Source: Chiloscyllium plagiosum
Taxonomy: Eukaryota
NCBI RefSeq assembly: GCF_004010195.1
Contig: NC_057757.1
Location: forward strand, 5,432,430-5,464,048
DNA: 31,619 nt
Direction of reading: 5' to 3'
The notes under the pieces were generated by a model that saw only the letters and a list, made by a program, of their open reading frames with translations, had not been told where the DNA came from and searched no databases. Shown here in pieces: positions 3,847 to 30,750 of the stretch (within the stretch, counting starts at the first letter, position 1; each line of letters begins with the position of its first letter). The position numbers and the translations under genes were made by a program.

Positions 3847-4143
3847 ATACCCAGTCCAGTGGCATTCACGTGCTCCCACAGAACTACCTGTACGATGTCC
3901 TGTATGCCTCCAGCATCCTGCTGCTCTGTCTCCTGGTGTGTCTAGTTGGAGCTCAAATCTATGCCAAGACCAGCTTCCTGATTTTTCTGGTGGTCCACGT
4001 TGTCCTGCTCACCATCATGGTCAGCTTCTTCGTGGTGAGCCCCAAGACCATGGTCATTGTGAGGCAGGTGGGGAACGAGAGCCAGTCCATCTACACCAAC
4101 TACACCGGCTTCAGTATGGCCACGCTGCGGGAAAACCTCTGGG
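3847..4143 (+). CDS. SLC12A9: SLC12A9 coding exon DTQSSGIHVLPQ...MATLRENLW
   Basis: CAGCAG acceptor 3841-3846 (alternative start 3844); GTAAGT donor at 4144; 297 nt; hydrophobic TM segments. Confidence 0.92.
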
Positions 4144-4187
4144 GTAAGTCCACACGGGTTCTCGTACCTGCTGTTGCGTGAGATTGT

Positions 4188-4653
4188 GGTCATAGTCATA
4201 GAGATGTACAGCATGGCAACAGACCCTTCGGTCCAACTCGTCCAGGTATCCTAACCTCCTCTACCCCCACTTGCCAGCACTTGGCTCATATCCCTCTAAC
4301 TCCTTCCTATCCATCGACCCAATCCAGATGCCTTTTAAATGCTGTAATTGTACCAGCCTCCTCCACTTCGACAGCTCGTTCCATACACACACCACCCTCT
4401 GTGAAAGTTGCCCCTTAGGTCTGTTTTATACCTTCCCCCCTCGCCCTAGACCTATGCCCTCTAGTTCTGGACTCCATGACCCCAGGGAAAATACTTTGTC
4501 TATTTACCCTATCCATGTCCCTCATGATTTTATAAACCTCTCAGGTCACCCCTCCATCTCCATGGAAAACAACCCAACCTGTTCAACTTCTCCCTATAAC
4601 TAAGACCTCTGACCCTGACTACATCCTTGTAAATCTTTTCTGAGCCCTTTCAG
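4188..4653 (-). mobile_element. CR1/HER1-type LINE 3' fragment (duplicated at 4879-5340)
   Basis: catagagatgtacagcatggcaacagacccttcggtcc...ccttgtaaatcttttctga. Confidence 0.8.
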
Positions 4654-4834
4654 GCCAAGACCAGCTTCCTGATTTTTCTGGTGGTCCACGTTGTCCTGCT
4701 CACCATCATGGTCAGCTTCTTCGTGGTGAGCCCCAAGACCATGGTCATTGTGAGGCAGGTGGGGAACGAGAGCCAGTCCATCTACACCAACTACACCGGC
4801 TTCAGTATGGCCACGCTGCGGGAAAACCTCTGGG
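4654..4834 (+). pseudogene. SLC12A9: Duplicated partial SLC12A9 exon (pseudo-exon) AKTSFLIFLVV...RENLW
   Basis: Matches 3963-4143; preceded by tttcag (ending 4653) and followed by GTAAGT (4835). Confidence 0.85.
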
Positions 4835-5340
4835 GTAAGTCCACACGGGTTCTCGTACCCGCTGTTGCGTGAGATTGTGGTCATAGTCATAGAGATGTAC
4901 AGCATGGCAACAGACCCTTCGGTCCAACTCGTCCAGGTATCCTAACCTCCTCTACCCCCACTTGCCAGCACTTGGCTCATATCCCTCTAACTCCTTCCTA
5001 TCCATCGACCCAATCCAGATGCCTTTTAAATGCTGTAATTGTACCAGCCTCCTCCACTTCCTCTGACACACACCACCCTCTGTGAAAGTTGCCCCTTAGG
5101 TCTGTTTTATACCTTCCCCTCTCGCCCTAGACCTATGCCCTCTAGTTCTGGACTCCATGACCCCAGGGAAAATACTTTGTCTATTTACCCTATCCATGTC
5201 CCTCATGATTTTATAAACCTCTAAGGTCACCCCCTCCATCTCCATGGAAAACAACCCAACCTGTTCAACTTCTCCCTATAACTAAGACCTCTGACCCTGA
5301 CTACATCCTTGTAAATCTTTTCTGAACCCTTTTCAGGTTT

Positions 5341-8314: not shown

Positions 8315-8660
8315 TATTTCACGGGATGAGGTGATTGCTGGCTGAGCCCAGCAGTTCTTGCCCATCCCTAATTGCCCAAAGGACAGTTTAAGAGTCTACT
8401 GCATTACTGTGGGTCTGGAGTCATGTGTAGGCCTGAACAGGTAAGGATAGTGGGTTTCCTTCCCTAAGGGACATGGAAAAACCCATCTGGTTCACTAACA
8501 ATCAGCAATGGATTCATGGTCATCATTAGACTCTTTAATTTCAGATTTTATTTTTGAAATTGAATTCAAACGCCATGGTGGGATTTGAACCAGGGTCCCC
8601 AGAACATTAGCTGAGTTTTTGGGTTAACAGTCCAGCAATAATACCACTGGGCCAGCACAT
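8315..8660 (-). mobile_element. Second tRNA-headed SINE family, near full length
   Basis: Minus-strand A box (TGGCCCAGTGG) and B box (GGTTCAAATCC); body gcccatccctaattgccc / gggtctggagtc. Confidence 0.7.
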
Positions 8661-12429: not shown

Positions 12430-12713
12430 GGGGTGGGGGAAAAGATGTGTTTTTTTTTAGCATTTGTCCCAAGATAATGATGAAGGCCTACTCCATACCC
12501 CCAACCCTGGCCAATAATGGGAAGTGCCGACAGACTGGTGTTAACTCGAAGACATTGTCCTCAAGGCGTGAGGGGTGGGGGAAAAGATGTGTTTTTTTTT
12601 AGCATTTGTCCCAAGATAATGATGAAGGCCTACTCCATACCCCCAACCCCGGCCAATAATGAGAAGTGCCGACAGACTGGTGTTAACTCGAAGACATTGT
12701 CCTCAAGGCGTGA
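12430..12713 (+). repeat. Tandem duplication, 142-bp period
   Basis: ggggtgggggaaaagatgtg...tcaaggcgtga occurs twice with two substitutions seen. Confidence 0.92.
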
Positions 12714-12947: not shown

Positions 12948-13482
12948 TTATTCACTCACTGGATGTGGCCATCGCTGGCTAGGCCCAGCATTTATCACCC
13001 ATCCCTAATCGCCCCAGGCAGTGGTTAAGAGTCAACCCCTTTGCTGTGGGTCTGGAGTTGCGTGAAGGCCTGACTGGGTCAGGACAGCAGTTACCTTCCC
13101 TGAAGGGGCACCAGACAGGGTTTTCTGACAATGAATTCATGCTCATTTCAGATTTAAAAAAAAAATTGAATTCCAGTCCCACCATCTTCCAGGTCCCCAG
13201 GACATTCTTTGAGTTAACAAGGCAAAAGTGAGGTCTGCAGATGCTGGAGATCAGAGACAAGATTAGTGTGGTGCTGGAAAAGCACATCAGGTCAGGCTGC
13301 ATCCGAGGAGCAGGAAAAATTGATGTTTCAGGCAAACTTTCTTCAGGAATTGGGTTTTTGGCCGAAATGTTGTTTCCCCTGCTCCTCTGATGCTGCCTGA
13401 CTTTCTGTGCTTTTCCAGCGCCACTCTAATCCTGTGTCTGGGTTAATATTCCAGTAAATAGTACCACTAGGGCCATTGCCTC
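12948..13482 (-). mobile_element. Second tRNA-headed SINE family, interrupted by a palindromic Penelope-type element
   Basis: Homologous to 8315-8660 over 12948-13219 and 13439-13482. Confidence 0.7.
13222..13436. mobile_element. Palindromic Penelope-type element (family A)
   Basis: Arms gtggtgctggaaaagcacatcaggtcaggctgcatccgaggagcagg and cctgctcctctgatgctgcctgactttctgtgcttttccagcgccac. Confidence 0.75.
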
Positions 13483-14029: not shown

Positions 14030-15022
14030 AGAGTGATGGGAGGGTTGGTTTTTTTGGATTGGAGGCCTGTGACCAGTGGTGTTCCACAGGATTGATAGAG
14101 TCCACTTTTGTTTGTCATTTATATAAACAAACTGGATGAGAATATGGGAGGTATAGTTAGTAGGTTTGCGGATGACACCAAGATTGGTGGTAGAGTTGAC
14201 ATTGCAGGAGGTTATCTGATATTACAAAGATGTCTTGATTTATACAACTAATGGTGGGGCCCCAGGTCGTGTTGCAGAACAGACTGAGGGGAATTATGTA
14301 CTGTAAGGTACATAATTCGTTTGAAGTTTGCATCACATGTACGCAGGTTAAGGCATTTAGCACACGTGCCTTCATTGCTCAGACCCTTGTGTTGGGACGT
14401 CATGCTCAGGTTGTACAGGACGTTTGATTTTACTGCTCCTCGGATGCCGCCTGAACTGCTGTGCTCTTCCAGCACCACTAATCCAGAAGGACGACATTGT
14501 GAGGCCTCTTCTGAAATACAGTGTGCAATTCTGGTCACCCTGTTATAGGAAGGATATTATTAAACTGTAGAGGGTTCAGAAGAGATTTACCAGGATGTTG
14601 CTGGGAATGGAGGATTGGAGTTATAAGGAGAGGCTGGGACTTTATCTCCTGGAGGAAAGGAGGCCGAGGGGTGACCTTAGAGATTTTATAAAATCGTGAG
14701 GGTTAGAGAGAAGGTAGATGGTAGATGTCTTTTCCCTAGGGTAGGGGATTTCAAGACTAGGGGTATAATTTTAAAGGTGAGAGGAGAAAGACTTTTAAAA
14801 GACCAGTGAATTTATTTAGTGGTTTGTGCATAGAATTAACTTCCTGTCAAAGTGGTGGATGCTGGTATAGTTACAACACTTAAGACATTTTGGATAAGTC
14901 CATGACTAGGAAAGGTTTGGAGGGATATGGGCCAGTAGCAGGCAGCTGGGACTAGTTTAGTTTGGGATTATGGTCAGCATGGACTGGTTGGGCCGAAGGG
15001 TCTGTTTCCGTGCTGTATGACT
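14030..15022 (+). mobile_element. CR1-type LINE fragment (RT domain remnant to 3' tail) with a nested Penelope-type fragment at about 14420-14487
   Basis: gtgaccagtggtgttccacagg (VTSGVPQG) and tttgcggatgacaccaagattgg (FADDTKIG); tail gggccgaagggtctgtttccgtgctgtatgactc. Confidence 0.88.
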
Positions 15023-19784: not shown

Positions 19785-20584
19785 GTGGGATGAAGCCTAA
19801 CACGTTGGTCCTTGGATTCTACGACCACTCCGTTCCTGATGACTACTTCCTGCATGACCCGGCCTTCAGGGACGCCAGAGACAACAATGACCACTTTGGT
19901 GTGGACCTTGCCTCGCTGCAGGCCCACTTCCCCCCCGTGCGGGACGGCGAGACCCCCAAGAACCTGTCTGAGCAGGAGTACGTCGCTATCATCTCCGACG
20001 CGCTCAAGATGCAGAAGAATGTGTGCCTGGCGCGGGGTTTCTTTGCCATGGACCGGAAGGGGCTGCTGCTGTCCAAGACGCGGCCGGAGAGGGTGTCCAT
20101 TGACGTGTGGCCTCTGAACCTTCTGAGGCCTGACAGCACTGACTACGTGGACGTGTGCAGCCTCTTCCTGCTGCAGATGGCCTGTGTCCTGACCATGGTG
20201 GCCTCCTGGAAGGCCGCACGCCTGCGGATCTTCCTGTGCATCGAGCCCGGCGACGGCAGCTGGGTCCGGAAGGAGGAGAAGCTGCGCCGGCTCTTGGACC
20301 AGCTGCGCATCAAGGCCACCATCAAGATTGTCACCTGGGAGGCGGTGGGGCCTAGCGGGCAGGCCTCAGCCGACCATGTCTCCGATGGATATCTGCGGGC
20401 GGTCAACCGTATGATCCTAGACCAGGGTTTCCACACGGCTGTCCGGTTCCTCTACCTGCCCAGGCCTCCTGCTGAAACCACCCACTCCCAACGCTACCTG
20501 GAGCAGCTGGCTATCCTGACTGAAGATTTGGGGCCTACACTCCTGATCCACGGCCTAACTCCAGTCACCTGCACCGACCTATGA
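19785..20584 (+). CDS. SLC12A9: SLC12A9 terminal coding exon (cytoplasmic C-terminal domain) GMKPNTLVLGFYD...VTCTDL*
   Basis: (TC)-rich tract plus CAG ending 19784; 800 nt to TGA at 20582-20584. Confidence 0.96.
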
Positions 20585-20681
20585 CAGGCTCCACCAGATA
20601 TCCCCGGCTCCCTTTAAAAACAGAAAGCCCTGATGGGCACAGACTCTGAACTCTAACTGACCATCTCGTCTGGTCAGCAAA

Positions 20682-20912
20682 AATAAAACCGTGCCTCGGA
20701 CACTTTATTTAAAAAGAGAGAGAGAAAAAGGGTGGGGTTCTTGCTCATCGCTGTTATTTATACTTAAATAAATGAAGAATGGGGTAGGGCTTTGAGGGGA
20801 AAGGATTGTGTAATTTGGATTTAAAATGTTTTTTTTCCAGAAGTGAGGGTGGGATTCTAACTTATTAAAACGTTAAACAATATTTGTTCCGCGTTTTTTG
20901 TTTGGTTTTTCC
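20682..20912 (+). terminator. Candidate SLC12A9 polyadenylation signals
   Basis: AATAAA at 20682 and 20767; ATTAAA at 20864 followed by a GT/T-rich tract at about 20891-20912. Which one is used is unknown. Confidence 0.5.
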
Positions 20913-21227
20913 GACTGACTCCGTGTCAGTCCGAGATCTTCCTGTGTAGTGATTTGGTGAGGTGTTGCCATGGTAATGACAGCCCAGGCCCTCCAGCCAA
21001 CTCCCAACATTGTCTCTGTCAGACCTTCCCAACCAGGGCCTGGGGGCTACCCCACGCAGACCATCCTGACGATGGCCTCTGCCTGTAGGGAAGGCCCAGA
21101 TGGATCTTGAGCCTCCCTCTGTTTCCAGGGAGTGAGTTCCTGGTTTGGAGCCAGTCCACTACTTTTTCTCTCCTCCCTTCAACCCCCCCCCCCCCCTTTC
21201 CTTTTTTCTTTCTCTTTCCCTCCTTTC

Positions 21228-21718
21228 ACTTCTGTACAGACTGGGACCAGGCCTTCCAACTCCTGTACTCAATACTCTGACCAATAAAGGAAAGCATACC
21301 AAACACCGCCTTCATTATCCTATCTACCTGCAACTTCACTATCAAGGAGCTATGAACCTGCACTCCAAGGTCTCATTGTTCAACCCTCCCAGGGCCTTAC
21401 CATTTTAAGTGTATAAGTCCTGCTAAGATTTGCTTTCCCCAAGATGCAGCACCTCAATTTAACTAAATTAACCTCCATCTGCCATTCCTCAGTCCATTTG
21501 ATCACGGTCCCATTGTACTGAGAAAATCTTCACTGTCCACCGTGCCACCACTTTGGGTGTCATCTGCAAATTACCTCCTGCCTTCACATCTAAATAATTT
21601 ATATAAACGAAAAGCAGTGGACCCGGCGTTGACCCTTGTGGCACACCGCTGGTCACAGGCCTCCAGGCTGAAAAGCAACCCTCCAGCACCACCCTCTGTC
21701 TCCTTCCTTCGAGCCAAG
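21228..21718 (-). mobile_element. CR1-type LINE RT fragment
   Basis: ORF 21489-21692 contains [26 protein letters not shown], followed by a frameshifted FADDT (tgtcatctgcaaa on the + strand). Confidence 0.88.
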
Positions 21719-22386
21719 TTTAAACCCCTCCTGAGCATTGACCCTTTTGTGCACCTCGTACCCCACACCAGCCAGACTGCTGTTCTAAAGCAGTTACGTG
21801 TCACCATCAGAGGTCAGTGTTTTGAGGTGGTCAGAGTCCATCTCAAATGTTGCGTGGACCTAAGACCTCTCCTGTATTTTGTTTTGGATTTTTTTTTTGC
21901 CAATGCTGAGGATTCCAGATAATCCTTCTCAATCCCAGATCTTCTGAAAAAGCACTTCTGTTTATTCAAGGGAGATGCTCCATTACCCCTCTTCTTTTTT
22001 TTTTTTCCCAGCCAAGTTGGTGATTTTTGTAAACTATCTTTGCTATATATTTTTGGGTCCCCTATATCCTTCTAGTTTATCATCATTTTTATGTGAAAAT
22101 GGATACACCATATTTGCTTAATGAGTCTTTACCTGTCTGTTTTCATTCATATTCACCCTCTGTTGCTTTTCCGAGCTGTCCCTGTTTTGCTGGGTTTCAA
22201 AGTTATTTTGGCTAGATGACCTTTTTTTTTTTTTTCCCCTCCTTTCAGGTTTCCTGGTCTATCATGACCGCATTCTGCTGGGTGCATAACTTGATCGTGC
22301 TGTACACAAAAGTAGGCTTCTCAATTTCAAATTAAAAGACCATATCTACACTCCATAATTTCTTGCCCATCAGGCAACCCGTGGGA

Positions 22387-22583
22387 TCGAGAGTGTGGTG
22401 CTGGAAAAGCATAGCAGATCAGGCAGCATCTGAGGAGCAGGAGAATCGACGTTTCGGGCAAAACGCCTTGTTTTGGGAAAGACCCTTCATCATCAACTCT
22501 CCTGCTCCTTGGCTGCTGCCTGACCTGCTGTGCTTTTCCAGCATCGCGCTCTTGACTGTGATCTGCAGTCCTCCCTTTCACCT
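22387..22583. mobile_element. Palindromic Penelope-type element (family A)
   Basis: Same arms as 26310-26503; degenerate minus-strand hammerhead at 22448-22493. Confidence 0.75.
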
Positions 22584-22587
22584 AACC

Positions 22588-23118
22588 TGTGGAGCATCTG
22601 AGGCTGAGGGGTAACTTTTTTTTTATATATAGAGGTTTACAAAATCGTGAGGGGCATGGATAGGATAAATAGACAGTCTTTTCCCTGGGGTGGGGGAGTC
22701 CAGAACTAGAGGGGCATAGGTTTGGTGTGAGAGGGGAAAGGTATGAGACCTAAAGGGCAACTTTTTCATGCAGGGGGTGGTGAGTGTATGGAATGAGCTG
22801 TCAGAGGAAGTGGTGGAGGCTGGTACAATTGGACCACTTTAAAAGGCATTTGGGTGGGTATATGAATAGGAAGGGTTGGGGGGGGGGAGGGGGAGAGAGG
22901 AGATATGGGCCGGGTGCTGGCAGGTAGGACTAGATTGGGTTGGGATATCTGGTTGGCATGGACCGGCTGGACAGAAGGGTCTGTTTCCATGCTGTACATC
23001 TGACAGATTTGGTCACTGTTATCACCATTACATTTCTTTGGTATATATTTTTGTACCAGGAGTAATACATGGGTATCTAAACATGGACTGGTTGGGCAGA
23101 AGGGTCTGTACTGTATGA
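22588..23118 (+). mobile_element. CR1-type LINE 3' fragment
   Basis: ggagcatctgaggctgagggg...gggtctgtttccatgctgtacatc. Confidence 0.8.
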
Positions 23119-23269
23119 CCCTATGCTGTAAGGGCTGTCTGTTGCCTCACTCAGACTGTCTTGCTGTTGAAGTGAGCATCCTGTTGGAAATGTTCTATTG
23201 TATGCTTTGTAGCTTTTTCCTCTTTTACAATCTGTAAGATGACTGATAGAGTAGGGAGACCATGTCTGA

Positions 23270-23420
23270 GATGCTCAGCCTTAAGTGGAGTCGCAGGTAG
23301 ATAGGATAGTGAAGGAGGTGTTTGGTATGCTTTCCTTTATTGGTCAGGATGCTCAGCCTTAAGTGGAGTCGCAGGTAGATAGGATAGTGAAGGAGGTGTT
23401 TGGTATGCTTTCCTTGGTCC
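23270..23420 (+). repeat. Tandem duplication, 78-bp period, at the 5' junction of a CR1 fragment
   Basis: gatgctcagccttaagtggagtcgcagg...gctttcctt starts at 23270 and again at 23348. Confidence 0.9.
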
Positions 23421-23995
23421 GTACGGAGTACAGGAGTGGGGAAGTCATGTTACAGCTGTACAGGACATTGGTTAGGCCACTGTTGGAATATTGTGTGCAA
23501 TTCTGGTCTCCTTCCTATCGGAAAGACGTTGTGAAACTTGAAAGGGTTCAGAAAAGATTTACAAGGATGTTGCCAGGGTCGAAGGGTTTGAGCTACAGGG
23601 AGAGGCTGAATAGGTTAGGGCTGTTTTCCCTGGAGCATCGGAGGCTGAGGGGTGACCTTTTATAGAGCTTTATAAAAGCATGAGGGGCACAGATAGGATA
23701 AATAGGCAAAGATTTTTTTTCCCTGGGGTCAGGGAGTCCAGAACTAGAGGGCATAGGTTTAGGGTGAGAGGGGAAAGGTATTAAAAAACCTAAGGGGTAA
23801 CATTTTCAGAGGGTGGTGAGTGTATGGGATGAGCTGTCAGAGGATGTGTTAGAGGCTGGTACAATTACAACGTTTAAGAGTCATCCGCTTGGGTATATGA
23901 TTAGGAAGGGTTTGGAGGCATATGGGCCGGGTGCTGGCAGGTGGGACTAGATTAGGTTAGGCCGAAGGGTTTGTTTCCGTGCTGTACGTCTGTGA
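23280..23995 (+). mobile_element. CR1-type LINE 3' fragment
   Basis: ORF 23363-23665 LYRTLVRPLLEYCVQFWSP...LERVQKRFTRM...LFSLEHRRLRGDL is the CR1 ORF2 C-terminus. Confidence 0.9.
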
Positions 23996-24414
23996 CTGAG
24001 GCCAAAGCTGGAGTACTGTGTGCACTTCTGTGCCCCTACCCTACAGGAAGGATGGGATTGCACTGGGGGGGTGGGGTGCGGAGTAGATCAGCCTGGGGCG
24101 GGGTGTTTCAGCGACTGAGTGAGGCTGGATAAGCTCAGGTTGTTTTCTTCGGAGCAGAGAAGGCCGAGGTGGATAGGAAACGGTTCCCTGCACTCGAGAG
24201 GTCACTGTTTAAAGTGAGGGGGCAGCAGGGTTCAGTGAGGAAATCTGCATTCACCCAGAGGCTAGAAAGCTCTGCCTAGTAGGCTAATAGGGATAGGGAA
24301 CCTTCTTGGGGAGGGGGAAATAAAGTACTTGGATGAGCATTTAATGTCAACTGTGGGCCCAGTGGAAATGGGCTAGCACAGACTCAATGGGTCAAAGAGT
24401 ATGCATAAAAAGGC

Positions 24415-24600
24415 CCTATGTGCAGGTTAGGGTGGATTGGCCATGTTAAATAGTCACATAGGCATGTGCAGGCTAGGTGGGTTAGCCATGGGGAGGGGTT
24501 ATTAGGATAGGGGTGGGGGTTGGCGGGTGGGATGCCCTTCAGAGGGACAGTGTGGACTCAATGGGCTGAATGGCCTGCTTCCACCCTCTCGGGATTCCGC
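24415..24600 (+). mobile_element. HE1/V-SINE-type SINE, 3' part only
   Basis: tgtgcaggttagggtggattggccatg...gggctgaatggcctgcttccac. Confidence 0.7.
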
Positions 24601-25237
24601 ATACCCTGACAAATTGCCCTTTTCCCTCAGTGCAGCACCCCCCCCCCCCCCCCCGGTCAGAAACACTGCCATCTCCTCATGAGCAAGGGCTTGGTCTGTC
24701 CAGTTTTAACCATTTGCTGTTGTTTCCAAAAGCAGCGTCTGGTCTGGAGGCATGTGTTTTTCCCCCCTGAGCTCCTACTATCCACTGGCCTGACCACCAA
24801 GATCCCAGTGGGGTCTTGCTGTGCACACTTCCCAATTTCAAAGGTGGGACATCTCTGCTTAACGCTCTATGTTGAGGGGCAGGGGAATGTTTTATTTTTG
24901 CAGCAGATGCTATATAAATGCCCCATCTCTCTCCAGATTTGGAGGTGCTTGCTGTTCTGTCTGTGTGCCAGGAGATGGCGCCCATTCCTCTGTGCCACTT
25001 GACAACCACCACAACAACAACTTTGTATATTTAGATAGCATTGTTAACTTGGCACCTGCCAAGTTTATGAAACGAATGATCCTTTGTTTTCTTTTTCAAA
25101 ATCAGAAAAGGTTAAGATCCAAAGAGCCTTTGATCTGAGGGGCTAAGGGAGGGAATTCCACAGCCTGTACCCCATGTATAAGATGCCCCCAGGGGGTATG
25201 GTGCTGGAAATGCACTGAGCTCTGCTGGAGGTGTTAG

Positions 25238-25503
25238 GTGGGTCAGTGGTTAGCACTGCTGCCTCACAGCGCCAGGGACCCAGGTTCGATTCCAGCCTCA
25301 GGCGACTGTCTGTGTGGCATTTGCACGTTCTCCCTGTGTCGGCGTGGGTTTCCTCCCACAGTCCAAAAATGTGCAGGTTAGGGTGGACTAGCCATGGGAA
25401 ACGCAGGCTTAGAAGGATAGGGTGGTAGAGTGGGATGCTGTTTGGAGGGTCGGTGTGGACTCAACGGGCCGCATGCCCTGCTTCCATGGGTATAGAGATT
25501 CTG
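25238..25503 (+). mobile_element. HE1/V-SINE-type SINE
   Basis: B box GGTTCGATTCC, core and tail present. Confidence 0.85.
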
Positions 25504-26309
25504 CCATTGCGGAGAGGTTTTAGAATAGGTTTTAAAAGCAGCTCCCAATCAAGCAATGCCTTTTTTTAAAAAAAAATCAATCAGCTCTGGCCAATGCTGA
25601 GTCAAGATGCCAGCAGTAGAGTTTTAAACCAACTCAAGTTGGCAAGAGGAGTGCGGATGCGGGAAATGTGTTTGCAGTAGGTAGGAGCAACCATTTTGCA
25701 AAGGTTCAAGCAACAGACAAGGCACTGCTACAGACAGAATCTCTTCCTCCTCTTTACTGTCAAGCAAGAGGCCATTGTGGTCAACAACGCAATGGTGGAG
25801 GTTTGGGGGGGGGAGGGGAAGCTTCAACAAGATTTGTGAGTTGGGAGAAGTAATGTTTACGAGGCGTTTATACAGACACGTGAACGGGCAGAGAATAGAG
25901 GGATATGGTCCCAGTGCAGGCAGCTGGTTTCAGACATCATGGTTAGCACAGCCACAGTGGGCCGAAGGGCCTGCACCTGTGTTGTACTGTTCAAGTGCAA
26001 CGTGGGTATTTGTTTTTATCTTCTGCTCTGCCTCTCTTCAACAGTCTGCAACCCAATCATCTAGTAGCACCCCCCATTTAAGGTCAGGCATAGAAGCTAG
26101 GTTGGCCATTCAGCCCCTTTAGTCTGTTCCGCCCTTCGAGGTGGTACCTGATGCTCCACTGTGCATTCAGCAGCACGTGTAGAATTGAGACTCCTTTCTT
26201 GAAATGAAACTTGTGCGCTTTAAGTTTGTCCCCCTCTGGCCACCCCATGGGCTGAATACTCTGTTTCTGCACTGCATCCTTTCGGAGATGCCGTAAGGTT
26301 CCAGGAAGG

Positions 26310-26503
26310 AGAGAGTAGGGACTGCAGATGCTCGAGATCAGAGTCGAGAGTGTGGCGCTGGAGAAGCGCAGCTGGTCAGACAGCATCCGAGGAGCAGGAG
26401 AATCAACGTTTCAGGAATTCCTGATGAAGGGCTTATGCCTGAAACGTCGCTCCTCGGATGCTGCCTGACCTACTGTGCTTTTCCAGCACCACACTCTCGC
26501 CCT
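26310..26503. mobile_element. Palindromic non-autonomous Penelope-type element (family A)
   Basis: Inverted arms cgagagtgtggcgctggagaagcgcagctggtcagacagcatccgaggagc (from 26345) and gctcctcggatgctgcctgacctactgtgcttttccagcaccacactctcg (to 26499); candidate TSD 26297-26309 / 26504-26516. Confidence 0.75.
26421..26448 (+). ncRNA. Minimal type I hammerhead ribozyme core
   Basis: CTGATGA-A-GGGC-TTAT-GCCT-GAAAC-GTC: both conserved boxes, a helix II hairpin, palindromic ACGT in place of helix III, and a GUC cleavage triplet. Helix I is weak in this copy. Confidence 0.65.
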
Positions 26504-27234
26504 GATTCTAGGAAGGCCCTAACTTCTCTGTATACAGACCCGTGTGTGTGTGTATGTATATAGGGGTGGGGTGGGCACAGAGCATCTGTACTGCTGCTGT
26601 GCAGAGGCTATTCTGCCCATCTGTGTCTGTGCTGGATCTCGGAAAGCTTTTCACCACTTCTGCTTACCCCCCACCCCCCCCCCCAAATCTCTCCTCCCTG
26701 CTGTACAGGCAAAGGGGACCAGTACATGGGAACTGACACCACCCCTAAGCCTGGAGCAGTGATGTACCTTTTTCCTTCACTTCTCCTCCAAAACCTGAGC
26801 ACTGTTCACTACCGCTTGCCAAGTGTCCCACTCCTCTGAGTGTTCCTTCACCTCGTACTGTTGGGTTAGAGTTGGTGTGACCTGACTACCGTCAGGGGTT
26901 GGTTGGCAATGGTCACAGACCCACCCTTCCCCCACCCCAGGGCAACAGAGGATGGCCAATAAATGCCCTTCCAACAACAACTCTGCATTGGACATGCTGT
27001 TTTCATCAGCTCAATGCTATTGGAGCTGGTAACGGGGTATCCTCCTCCCCAGTCCCTTGATCTAAATGTTATCCCCTCCCCCCCCGCTCTAGAACAAGAT
27101 CATCATGCCGCCCCAAAGCGCTCTGCTAGGCCTGGGGTACAGCAAGATCCCACACTGTGATGCCAAGTAAATAGCAATGAGGTTGGGGCGGGGAGGGGCG
27201 AAACACAAGTTGCAACGGAGGGTGGATCTTGGAC

Positions 27235-27722
27235 GGATGGCTCAGTGGTTAGCACTGCTGCCTCACAGCGCCAGGGGCCCAGGTTCAATTCCAGCCTCGG
27301 GTGACTGTCCGTATGGAGTTTGCACATTCTCCCCGTGTCTGCGTGTGTTTCCTCCAGGTTTCCTCCCATAGTCCAAAGATGTGTAGGTCAGGATGGATTG
27401 GTCATGGGAAATTGTCCCATAGTGGCCAAGGATGTGCAGGTTAGGGTGGATTGGCCATGCTAAATTACCCCATAGTGTCCAGGCTCGGTGGGTTAGCCAC
27501 AGCAGATGCAGGGTTACAGGGATAGGGTGGCTTCCACACGGCCAGGATTCTGCAATTTCCTTTAGATAAAAGAGACTCTTCTTTCTGCCCATGATGACAA
27601 CCAGATGGGGTGGAGCTTAACACCATCTACAGCATTAACCCTTTCAGGTTCCTATTGGAAGGATGTTGTGCAGGTTAGGGTTGATTGACCATGGGAAATG
27701 CAAGGTTACAGGGATAGGGTAG
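27235..27722 (+). mobile_element. Composite element: HE1-type SINE + unique spacer + start of CR1 segment, then a SINE-core fragment
   Basis: Second, inverted copy of 5341-5690. Confidence 0.75.
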
Positions 27723-29172
27723 GTTCCCTCCCCTCCCCTTCCTCTCTTCTACTCCTCTCCTGAAAAATGGACCCAAGTCTCCTTTCCCCTCACTCCCCCT
27801 CCCACATCATTGGGGAATGATGTTTGTATCACCCCCCCCCCTGACCTGGTGTATGGGGGCAGGGGTATGTGGTGGGGGGCAGGGTAACTGGTTGGCAGGT
27901 TACCTTCACCAACCCCTGCCCACCTCGCCAACCACTCGTGCTCTTTTGTCCCAAGCTGTATGCGCACAGCCCACCTAGGTCCAACATCCAAGGGTGATGG
28001 TGGTGATGAGGAGAATAGTGTGGGTTTCAGGATTTCCCCACTCCCCAACAGGGGCAGTTGTTCCCATTCCCCCGTTTGATAGAGGGATTCTGATAGACTA
28101 AGTACTTCTCCCCACCCCCATCCTTCCATCCCCAAAACAAAAGGTGAAAGGAGTGAGGAACTACCACTGGGTCCTTGTTAGGAGAGGTCAGAGGTGAAAA
28201 GGTTAACCTCTGGAAGATCAGAGACTGAGCAGCTAACATGAGGCCTGCCGTGCTGACAGTCTCCTCCCACCCACAGCTCGAAACTGGCGTTGGAAAACCG
28301 GCCTAGTATTTGTAAGCTTTTGCAAAGCCTCACCACCCCCTCCCCCCCACTTCCTGGGGGGAGGAGTGGGGGGTGTTTGGCTTTCAGTCAAAAGGTCTTG
28401 CCCATGACCAGGGCCCTCATGTGACTGTGGCAGGAAAGGTGACCCCTCCCCCACTTGGGGGAACTGCTCGGCTTAGTCAGTGTATTTGCTGCCTAATGCT
28501 TTTCTTTACAATAAAAATACATAAAACATGAGAGAGCGTGAACACCACAGGGAACCGTGACACACTCACAGACGCAGAAATCCTAACACGAGGTGTTCCG
28601 AGAGAGTGTGATCCTATGCTTTCCCCTCCCTCACAACACCGTTGACTGCGCTATCCCCTCAGCTCCGAGAGAAATCCTTCAGTTCCACCGTTTCCAACAT
28701 GGCCGGCGCCATGACCGACTCCTCACACCAAGCCCCACCACCTCTGGTCACGGGATCTTGTTCTGTGGAAATCGAGGCTTCGGGCCTACCTGGGAAATGA
28801 TTCTAAGAACACAGGGTTGCAGAGCTTTCCTCTGGGGTTGGCACCCAAACAAAAAAATTGGCATTCATCTCCTTGCCAGGGTTGAGCGTCAGGTTAAAGG
28901 TCACCAGTAGGGCATCACCAGAAGTGGCAGAATGGTTTGCATGGAGCCAAGAACAAATTGAGGTAAATTCACGCATAGTGTTTGTCCCATTTTCTTCTCC
29001 CCTTCTCATCCCCAAACGAAAGCAGTCCAGATAAAAGCAGCACCGCCCGATTTCCTGGTTGCCATGGTTATGCTCTGTGTTTTGAAGCCTGCCAACAGGC
29101 CTCTGCTAGGCCGGAGTGAGCATTGTCACTCATTTGTAGGCCCCTGCCCTACTCTAGCACCGTCCCGGCCTT

Positions 29173-29357
29173 TCAGAGGGAGGTGTTCACCTTCTTGGCA
29201 ACCGCCCCGTCCTGGACCTGATGCTGCGCTGCCTGTAGGAGGCGGTACCGCTCCCTCAGGTTACGCCTGCGCACGTGCTCGTTGGTGATCTCCTGCACGT
29301 TCGCACTCGGGAACCAGCCCTTCTGCCCGGTTGACAACTTGCAGCCTTCGTACCAAC
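29173..29357 (-). CDS. ARHGEF15: Ephexin-family RhoGEF terminal exon: WYEGCKLSTGQKGWFPSANVQEITNEHVRRRNLRERYRLLQAAQHQVQDGAVAKKVNTSL*
   Basis: Minus-strand T-rich tract plus ccccag acceptor; 185 nt to TGA; SH3 GW..G...GWFP motif. Paralogue assignment rests on recalled similarity of the EHxRRRxLR tail to ARHGEF15. Confidence 0.82.
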
Positions 29358-30231
29358 CTGGGGACAGAAAAATAAAAAAAAAGGGCAGAATAGTGAAGCA
29401 GCCCGTAGGTTGCAATGATAGCCCACTGCTGAAACAAACTGCCTCACTCCCTCTCGGCTCTACCTCTGCCCCTCACCACTTCGTCTCAAATCCTCTCCCG
29501 ACAATTACCGCATTCCCTTTTTAAAAAAATGCACAATTGACAAATCGACAAATTAAAAAAGGTTTCCCATGCTCCCTCTGGTTGTATCTGACCCTCGTGT
29601 CTACTGATTTAAAAATTGGCACCCTCTGGAACCTTCTGCGAGACCTGTCAAACTTAAAAAAATCTTTAGGGCGAGGCGGTTTGTGTTTCTTTTATATATT
29701 AAAAAACAAATCCCTGACAGGGCCCTCGTTAAATATTTGAGTTAAGACTCTGATAAAAGGTTTCGGCCTAAGATATCAGGCTACTGGGACATCAGAAGCA
29801 GGAAATAAAAGAATTATTTTTGTTTGCAGTACCAAAAATGGAGCAATCCCAAATAATCCCACAAGGTTTACCTCGGAGGTTATTCCTATCTACTTCTGCA
29901 CTGGCTTTTACAGTTCACTCTGTACCAACGAGGCACCCTGGTCACAGGATCATCTCACCAAAACAATACTGTTGCTCACTACTCACTGAGCAGTGATTGC
30001 ATTAAAACTAGTTCTGTCTGTAAGATCCTGACAATACTCGTAGGTCTTCACTCCCTCCCAAACCTTATTCCCAAAACTAGAGACCTCACCCCCTCACATC
30101 GCTCAAAGTGTGCATCTTACAAAGCTGATATTTCAGATTTATGTGAGTGTGCCAGTATTTACAAGGTGGGGGAAGTTTGTGAGTATTTACTGGGCGGGGG
30201 TTCCCGGGGGGGAGGGGGGGAGTGTGTCAGT

Positions 30232-30302: not shown

Positions 30303-30433
30303 TATGTCAGTATTTAGGGGGGGGGCGAGGGGGGAGTATGTCAGTATTTTCAGGGAGGTCAGGATGGTGAATATTTTCTGGGGGGGAGGGGGGGTACGTG
30401 GCTAATCGCTCGGTCAAAGTGAAGCTGCCTCAC

Positions 30434-30538
30434 CCTCCGGCGATTTCCTGGTGATGTTGATAACGTCGGCCGGCTCCAAGCTGAGTTCATCCGTCTGCTG
30501 GGCCATGTAGGCAACCAGGCACTGGACCTGGGGGCAGT
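30434..30538 (-). CDS. ARHGEF15: Ephexin-family RhoGEF exon, SH3 N-half: (D)[34 protein letters not shown](G)
   Basis: Minus-strand acag acceptor after a (TC)n tract; GTGAGG donor at 30433; 105 nt; CPQVQC...Y.A...DELSL is the ephexin SH3 signature. Confidence 0.85.
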
Positions 30539-30546
30539 CTGTATCC

Positions 30547-30750
30547 GAGAGAGAGAGAGAGAGCGTGAGAGCGAGTGTGAGAGAGCGAGCGTGAGAGCGA
30601 GCGAGCGTGAGACACATACACATACACGCACACAGGGCCACAGACACACAGACTGAGGGACAGACACACACAGGGACACAGTGAGGGACAGACAGAGGGA
30701 CACACACACAGACGGACACTCAGATACACACACAGGGACACACAGAGTGA
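30547..30750 (+). repeat. (GA)n / (CA)n / GGGACACA low-complexity tract
   Basis: Read directly; the (GA)n part forms the polypyrimidine tract of the minus-strand exon starting at 30538. Confidence 0.9.

Follow-up and report, generated by a model that had tools for sequence, protein, structure and literature searches.

A hammerhead-bearing palindrome of Chiloscyllium plagiosum, probably a stub inserted by the enzymes of a Penelope-like element

A hammerhead ribozyme core lies within a palindrome of about 200 bp in the genome of Chiloscyllium plagiosum, and the question raised by this locus is whether the palindrome is a mobile unit in itself or a fragment left behind by another element. We examined it in a stretch of 31,619 nucleotides (contig NC_057757.1, positions 5,432,430 to 5,464,048; hereafter the window, numbered from its first letter). 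SLC12A9 exons, recognized by Pfam SLC12 and by named homologues, run on the plus strand up to 20584, an SH3 exon is found on the minus strand near 30414-30563, and the palindrome of interest, called copy A, lies between them in a window rich in LINE/SINE fragments. The last SLC12A9 exon reaches at most 64% identity to the 120 proteins listed (62-64% to those of snakes, 50-55% to frogs, and 45-55% to ray-finned fishes, among the named ones). Also, we noticed a near-perfect duplication repeating part of an SLC12A9 exon (3963-4262 and 4654-4953, 300 nt at 100%; 4385-4552 and 5066-5233, 168 nt at 99%), which is either a recent duplication or an assembly artefact, as well as two-copy tandems of 69, 142, and 78 nt with 98-100% identity (1905-2043, 12430-12713, and 23270-23415), which together with a run of N near 30230 suggest assembly joins. 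The parts of copy A are as follows.

26297-26309, plus strand: left copy of a probable target-site duplication, 11/13 identical to the right copy; its last 3 nt possibly belong to the end of the element as well
26307-26337, minus strand: one-sided extension ("tail") of about 30 nt on the left, inverted arm, marked by family depth and without a partner on the right side
26337-26414, minus strand: left arm, an inverted, 5'-truncated 3' end of the element that begins within helix II
26415-26420, no strand: 6-bp palindrome at the head-to-head junction, overlapping the 5' strand of helix I
26421-26448, plus strand: minimal type I hammerhead core, matching the consensus in Fig. S3 of PMC4209133
26448-26449, plus strand: site of a 9-nt deletion, by which the 3' strand of helix I is gone in copy A
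26449-26505, plus strand: right arm, the 3' end of the element without a tail, with the highest family depth
26504-26516, plus strand: right copy of the probable target-site duplication

Copy A is composed of two copies of one sequence, the 3' end of a single repeat, joined head to head. In the sense of the ribozyme, each arm has part or all of the hammerhead, then about 55 nt, and then optionally the extension of about 30 nt; the whole core is in the right arm only and the extension on the left arm only, and the left arm keeps GAAAC-GU together with the 9 nt missing from the right arm. While the original prediction had put the hammerhead at the centre of the palindrome, the core actually sits at the 5' end of the right arm, and the axis is the 6-bp palindrome at 26415-26420. 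The predicted hairpin itself is real (-125 kcal/mol, z -9.96, 0/200 shuffles), with 51 of 59 alignment columns identical between its arms, but its extent is 26337-26506 rather than 26345-26499. We assign 26307-26337 to the element and not to the flank, because family depth begins at 26307 (about 0.5-0.9 million over these positions vs 4-16 in the unique flank, with loose ends before 26307); loose ends at 26492-26499 in the right arm run into unlike sequence. The 13-bp direct repeat noted earlier around the palindrome was confirmed at 11/13 (its best core being 11 bp with one mismatch), and its score was equalled by 2 of 300 random position pairs. No empty target site of copy A was seen in the four sequencing runs. 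Both of its junctions are bridged by contigs of organism B (the left one by X13 record 1, the right one by X16 record 16), and copy A is therefore common to two organisms.

The core CTGATGA...GTC is present on the plus strand exactly as first given. It consists of box 1, an extra A after A9 (A26428), a 4-bp helix II, and GAAA, with a predicted cut after 26448, and helix III is replaced by a palindromic CG (C26445-G26446, positions 15.2-16.2). The features expected of a minimal type I hammerhead of the Penelope-like element (PLE) kind were found, namely the CUGANGA box, helix II, GAAA, U-H, the nucleotide after A9, and the palindromic 15.2-16.2, and this class assignment agrees with both a generic descriptor and the published consensus. 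Indeed, the descriptor (box 1, helix II of at least 4 bp, and GAAA-NN-U-H) had its sole match in the window at 26421-26448, with one match in 3 of 300 dinucleotide shuffles, and a looser core pattern gave two matches, both in this repeat family (6 of 100 shuffles reached two). An Rfam scan with E up to 1, suggested before as a check, gave three matches, none of which was to a hammerhead family. The Rfam result and the 3/300 shuffles could be taken to mean that the string arose by chance within some unrelated repeat; we consider this highly improbable, given that the core fits the consensus in PMC4209133, that elsewhere this core shows covariation and follows endonucleases of the PLE type (see below), and that the listed family variation spares the boxes. 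Among the differences listed, to which 16 weaker rows would be added, those within the core are at 26425 (N7), at 26435 (loop II), T26440C, and at the CpG 26445-26446; rarer changes may thus occur in the boxes. The closing pair of helix II (10.1-11.1) is G-U in copy A, as originally described, and G-C in the family majority; T26440C, carried by 444 of 696 X21 reads, restores the G10.1-C11.1 pair.

Whether copy A could cut is another matter. Helix I, expected to have 2-5 bp, does not form in copy A (pair probabilities of 0-0.02, with 9 nt deleted), and at the family level it is short and weak, with two pairs and a mismatch as judged by eye from loose ends. When copy A is folded whole, helix II has a probability of at most 0.01 and helix I of 0, and the hammerhead fold within the full hairpin costs 10.4 kcal/mol; in the right half alone, helix II forms (0.91) and helix I does not. 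The earlier caveats of a poor helix I and a core sequestered by the arms are thus borne out, and the modeled folds indicate that the ribozyme of copy A is probably dead, since its helix I strand is deleted and the hairpin buries the core. Moreover, in a head-to-head transcript the single sense ribozyme would be base-paired with the antisense copy of itself, and hence no dimer partner would be supplied. No pile-up of RNA ends was found in run X21, a poly(A) single-cell library that is insensitive to such ends.

Family depth was examined by matching four of the 24 runs listed, X5, X16, and X13 (contigs) and X21 (raw RNA), to 26150-26660 at 80% likeness. The family matched 58,289 contigs in X5 and 60,483 in X16, in keeping with the predicted abundance, and summed contig depth, which is not a copy number, was 0.5-16 million across 26312-26509 vs 4-10 in the left flank; these results support a very abundant family. 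It is also non-coding. The 9 nt of the 3' strand of helix I are present after 26448 in 186 of 667 X21 reads, and loose ends at 26449 occur in all four runs (1213 in X5, 1537 in X16, and 460 in X21). Depth at 26413-26416 relative to box 1 was 2-4% in X5 contigs and 9-12% in X21 raw RNA reads, and most family copies therefore lack the centre of copy A, although contigs can under-represent palindromes. As for RNA, 3125 of 12,955,460 X21 records (about 2% of the run) matched the family, on both strands; with regard to copy A itself, no X21 record matched at 99% likeness or fell on the unique flanks, so that these reads do not show it to be transcribed, and there was no RNA among the listed holders of 19800-29500. 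We also noticed that X21 reads over 26338-26376 carry several variants rare in DNA contigs (e.g., at 26344, 127 of 349), which points to strong expression of a single copy, or of a small number, from a different subfamily. RNA editing was considered as the source of the RNA-only T-to-C differences in X21 and rejected in favour of another subfamily, because other RNA-only changes accompany them.

The window also contains relatives of copy A, which had been expected at 13222, at 22387, and near 14420, and which were indeed found (matches at 13219-13427, 22387-22564, and 14424-14478).

13219-13440, no strand: copy B, a palindrome with its tail on the left, with a decayed core on the minus strand at 13325-13346, in an SLC12A9 intron
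22385-22583, no strand: copy C, a palindrome with its tail on the right and a rearranged core on the minus strand
14423-14487, plus strand: copy D, a solo arm without a tail, flanked by 6-bp direct repeats and embedded in a LINE fragment

A head-to-head inverted, 5'-truncated partner is found in three of the four copies (A, B, and C), and all three palindromes have the one-sided extension of about 30 nt, on the left in A and B and on the right in C. The arms are identical in 54/63 columns in copy B and 49/58 in copy C, and together with the value for copy A this indicates that the insertions are old. Copy B interrupts a repeat whose uninterrupted copy sits at 8594-8654, and both of its arms come from another subfamily than copy A; one end variant occurs in both arms of B and another in both arms of A. 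The best flanking repeats are 11-13 (A), 8-10 (B), 9 (C), and 6 bp (D), of which that of copy B was matched by 87/300 random pairs and that of copy C, with one mismatch, by 27/300, i.e., within chance. The centres differ among all three palindromes, and the junction of copy B has five of the six palindrome letters of copy A. At the junction of copy C (22451-22496, minus strand), the helix II-GAAA part of the core is locally duplicated, like a template slip. The copy B hairpin (13262-13431) gave the three Rfam matches mentioned above, which are weak matches to microRNA precursors, far below the cut-offs; hairpins like it could be misannotated as microRNA genes or could be a source for small-RNA silencing.

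These copies allow us to weigh the MITE-like mobile unit of the original prediction. Like MITEs (PMC8969392), the copies are short, non-coding, nearly all inverted repeat, and high in copy number. A palindromic master might be mobile itself, transferred intact by a transposase or in the form of hairpin RNA, with its centre eroded later; three of the four window copies are indeed palindromes of about 200 bp, the junction is partly common to A and B, and the target repeat surrounds the whole of copy A. We nevertheless regard such a master as improbable. Unlike MITEs, the window copies have no symmetric ends and no constant target duplication, with the tail on either side, three different centres, and a solo arm (D). 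Furthermore, subfamily variants are common to both arms of one copy, the centre of copy A is present in at most about 4% (X5) to 12% (X21) of the box-1 sequences, and the ribozyme would be blocked within the hairpin RNA. The MITE-like reading is accordingly disfavoured.

Where, then, did the family come from? No PLE reading frame was found in the window by tblastn with eight locus frames, only LINE-type reverse transcriptase fragments being matched, and a search for read-through into a PLE frame by way of longer proteins containing the element's translation gave 0 of 68 candidates, which is weak evidence. The predicted link to Penelope frames was seen, instead, for the same core in other animals. 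By searching metagenome contigs for the core pattern, we obtained at least 121 stretches, of which 120 loci, some of them near duplicates, were used; neighbouring Pfam matches identify them as animal host DNA. The arm sequence of the copy A family was absent from all 138 loci compared, which are hence analogues, and the arm motif had no match in viral contigs and none in prokaryote genomes. The core pattern also hit 18 loci in viral contigs, none with a GIY-YIG match; these are mostly chance and were set aside.

In the analogues, helix I, which lies outside the search pattern, pairs at 0.89, 0.83, 0.67, and 0.52 over the 120 loci listed, with 46 distinct combinations, while pairing falls to 0.11-0.43 when slid by one and was reached in 0 of 2000 shuffles (the relatedness of loci being uncorrected). 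Pfam GIY-YIG was matched by 4 of 90 analogue frames, one of them below the curated cut-off, and these frames show by eye the C-C-H-H pattern that PMC8557442 gives for the endonucleases of PLEs. In 29 of the 120 listed loci (three being the queries), a GIY-YIG end precedes the core on the same strand at a distance of 42-678 nt, and in three it lies elsewhere. Among the 105 listed loci with enough flank, 28 have an inverted partner upstream, with a centre gap of 6-842 nt over 32 rows (51 nt or less in 18). The analogue arms mostly end 69-95 nt from C3 (79 in copy A), and a flanking repeat of 11-16 bp together with a one-sided extension of 27-45 nt was noted in 5 of 22 inspected loci, by a repeat scan without a null. 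In view of these endonuclease ends, inverted partners, and extensions, families with a visible PLE link share the layout of copy A, and we infer by analogy that the copy A family would be of PLE origin. We additionally observed longer head-to-head PLE units in other animals (L060:1492-2244, L069:2227-2677, and L072:1283-1617), two with endonuclease sequence between the hammerheads, which are intermediates between full elements and the window stubs. In another locus (L073:556-1140), a C-x4-C-x2-C linker precedes the endonuclease end, a Neptune-type mark according to PMC8557442.

Published PLE insertions are described in much the same terms. According to PMC3846280 and PMC8557442, they consist of head-to-head pseudo-LTRs with an optional tail of 30-40 bp at one end and target duplications of 8-10 bp, and their inverted junction carries a palindrome for which self-priming has been proposed; compared with this layout (Arkhipova et al. 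2013; Craig et al. 2021), both copies here are shorter than 130 nt and no reading frame is left. For Poseidon of Anolis (Frangieh et al. 2024, PMC11167929), it is reported that two in vitro start sites of reverse transcription downstream of the hammerhead explain the tail, and that the ribozyme cut, shown in vitro, needed protein and was dispensable for insertion. Poseidon and the family described here are also alike in having no RNA-seq ends at the cut site; copy A is known from sequence only.

We thus consider it probable that copy A is a dead-on-arrival insertion made by a PLE reverse transcriptase and GIY-YIG endonuclease, with fold-back in the same event. Reverse transcription would use either of two start sites, which lie about 55 and 85 nt beyond the hammerhead on its downstream side and would account for the end of the arm and for the tail where there is one. 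It would end at the hammerhead or slightly upstream of it. The same event would then produce an inverted second copy, joined head to head to the first, for which a short palindrome probably served in fold-back priming, and a short target duplication would enclose the finished unit. The hammerhead would be a passenger from the pseudo-LTR; in the parent, it would cleave precursor RNA made of tandem units, acting as a dimer or aided by protein. The PLE enzymes assumed for the copy A family, the priming steps, and any cleavage are our reconstruction. Against this explanation, we count the negative search of the window for a PLE frame, the absence of the arm sequence from the analogues, the short and mismatched helix I of the family, the flanking repeats of B and C, which are within chance, and the A/B junction likeness, which would also be expected from a common palindromic master with later central deletions.

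The nature of the template is less clear. All seven window arms start within about 40 nt by eye, from about 8 nt upstream of C3 to the cut site, and copy D starts within about 3 nt of the predicted cut. This range would suit a dedicated, SINE-like mini-element of about 130 nt that has a transcript of its own, beginning a little before the hammerhead, is copied in trans by PLE enzymes, and forms palindromes at insertion. Loose ends before 26417 agree poorly with one another (0.41 over 349 X21 reads and 0.38 over 37 X13 contigs), as if the copies soon reach unlike flanks. An equal pile-up would, however, result from reverse transcriptase stalling at a structured ribozyme in a full-length RNA, and many analogue copies continue into the endonuclease (29/120 listed loci); we therefore hold the mini-element to be possible but rather doubtful. 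It is mostly compatible with insertion and fold-back by PLE enzymes as proposed above, the template alone being different. Likewise, we only tentatively suggest that the copied RNA, rather than being truncated at random, begins at the hammerhead, either shortly before box 1 or, in a minority (to judge from D and the right arm of C), at the cut site, with fold-back at a preferred short palindrome there. Copy D (14423-14487) and the right arm of C (22490-22500) both start no more than about 3 nt from the predicted cut site; the two arms may derive from cleaved RNA, or their position may be due to chance in view of the short palindrome there.

Several components of this picture are already in print, namely the ribozyme class, the PLE link, the opposite-strand pairs, and the inverted, tailed layout. 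The minimal hammerheads of metazoan PLEs were described by Cervera and de la Pena (2014, PMC4209133), who report thousands of solo motifs per genome and whose consensus shares with our core CUGANGA-H, G10.1-C11.1, GAAA, the palindromic 15.2-16.2, a short helix I, and opposite-strand pairs. Their pairs are about 100-700 bp apart, unlike copy A; the copy number of the copy A family looks higher, and copy A lacks the 3' strand of helix I. No cartilaginous fish was noticed among the species in their Fig. S3. Non-LTR retrozymes (Li, Clavereau and Pollet 2026, bioRxiv 10.64898/2026.07.22.740005) are non-coding hammerhead derivatives of PLEs in vertebrates, including one chondrichthyan, and form head-to-tail tandems in which every unit carries its hammerhead, whereas copy A is head to head and its fold blocked; none of the 21 tandem rows in the window covers a copy. 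We found no description of the sequence of the copy A family in the literature searched, the scope of which excluded repeat databases (Repbase/Dfam) and subscription papers.

In conclusion, copy A matters little as a single locus, being a decayed stub, while its family shows that in a vertebrate genome the end fragments of PLEs can belong to the most frequent repeats, and that they can be taken in error for MITEs or for the hairpins of microRNAs. If the copied RNA does start at the hammerhead, this huge family would be a dedicated, ribozyme-headed mini-element, and its many insertion junctions would preserve in nature the way in which PLEs carry out priming and inversion and the use they make of the hammerhead.
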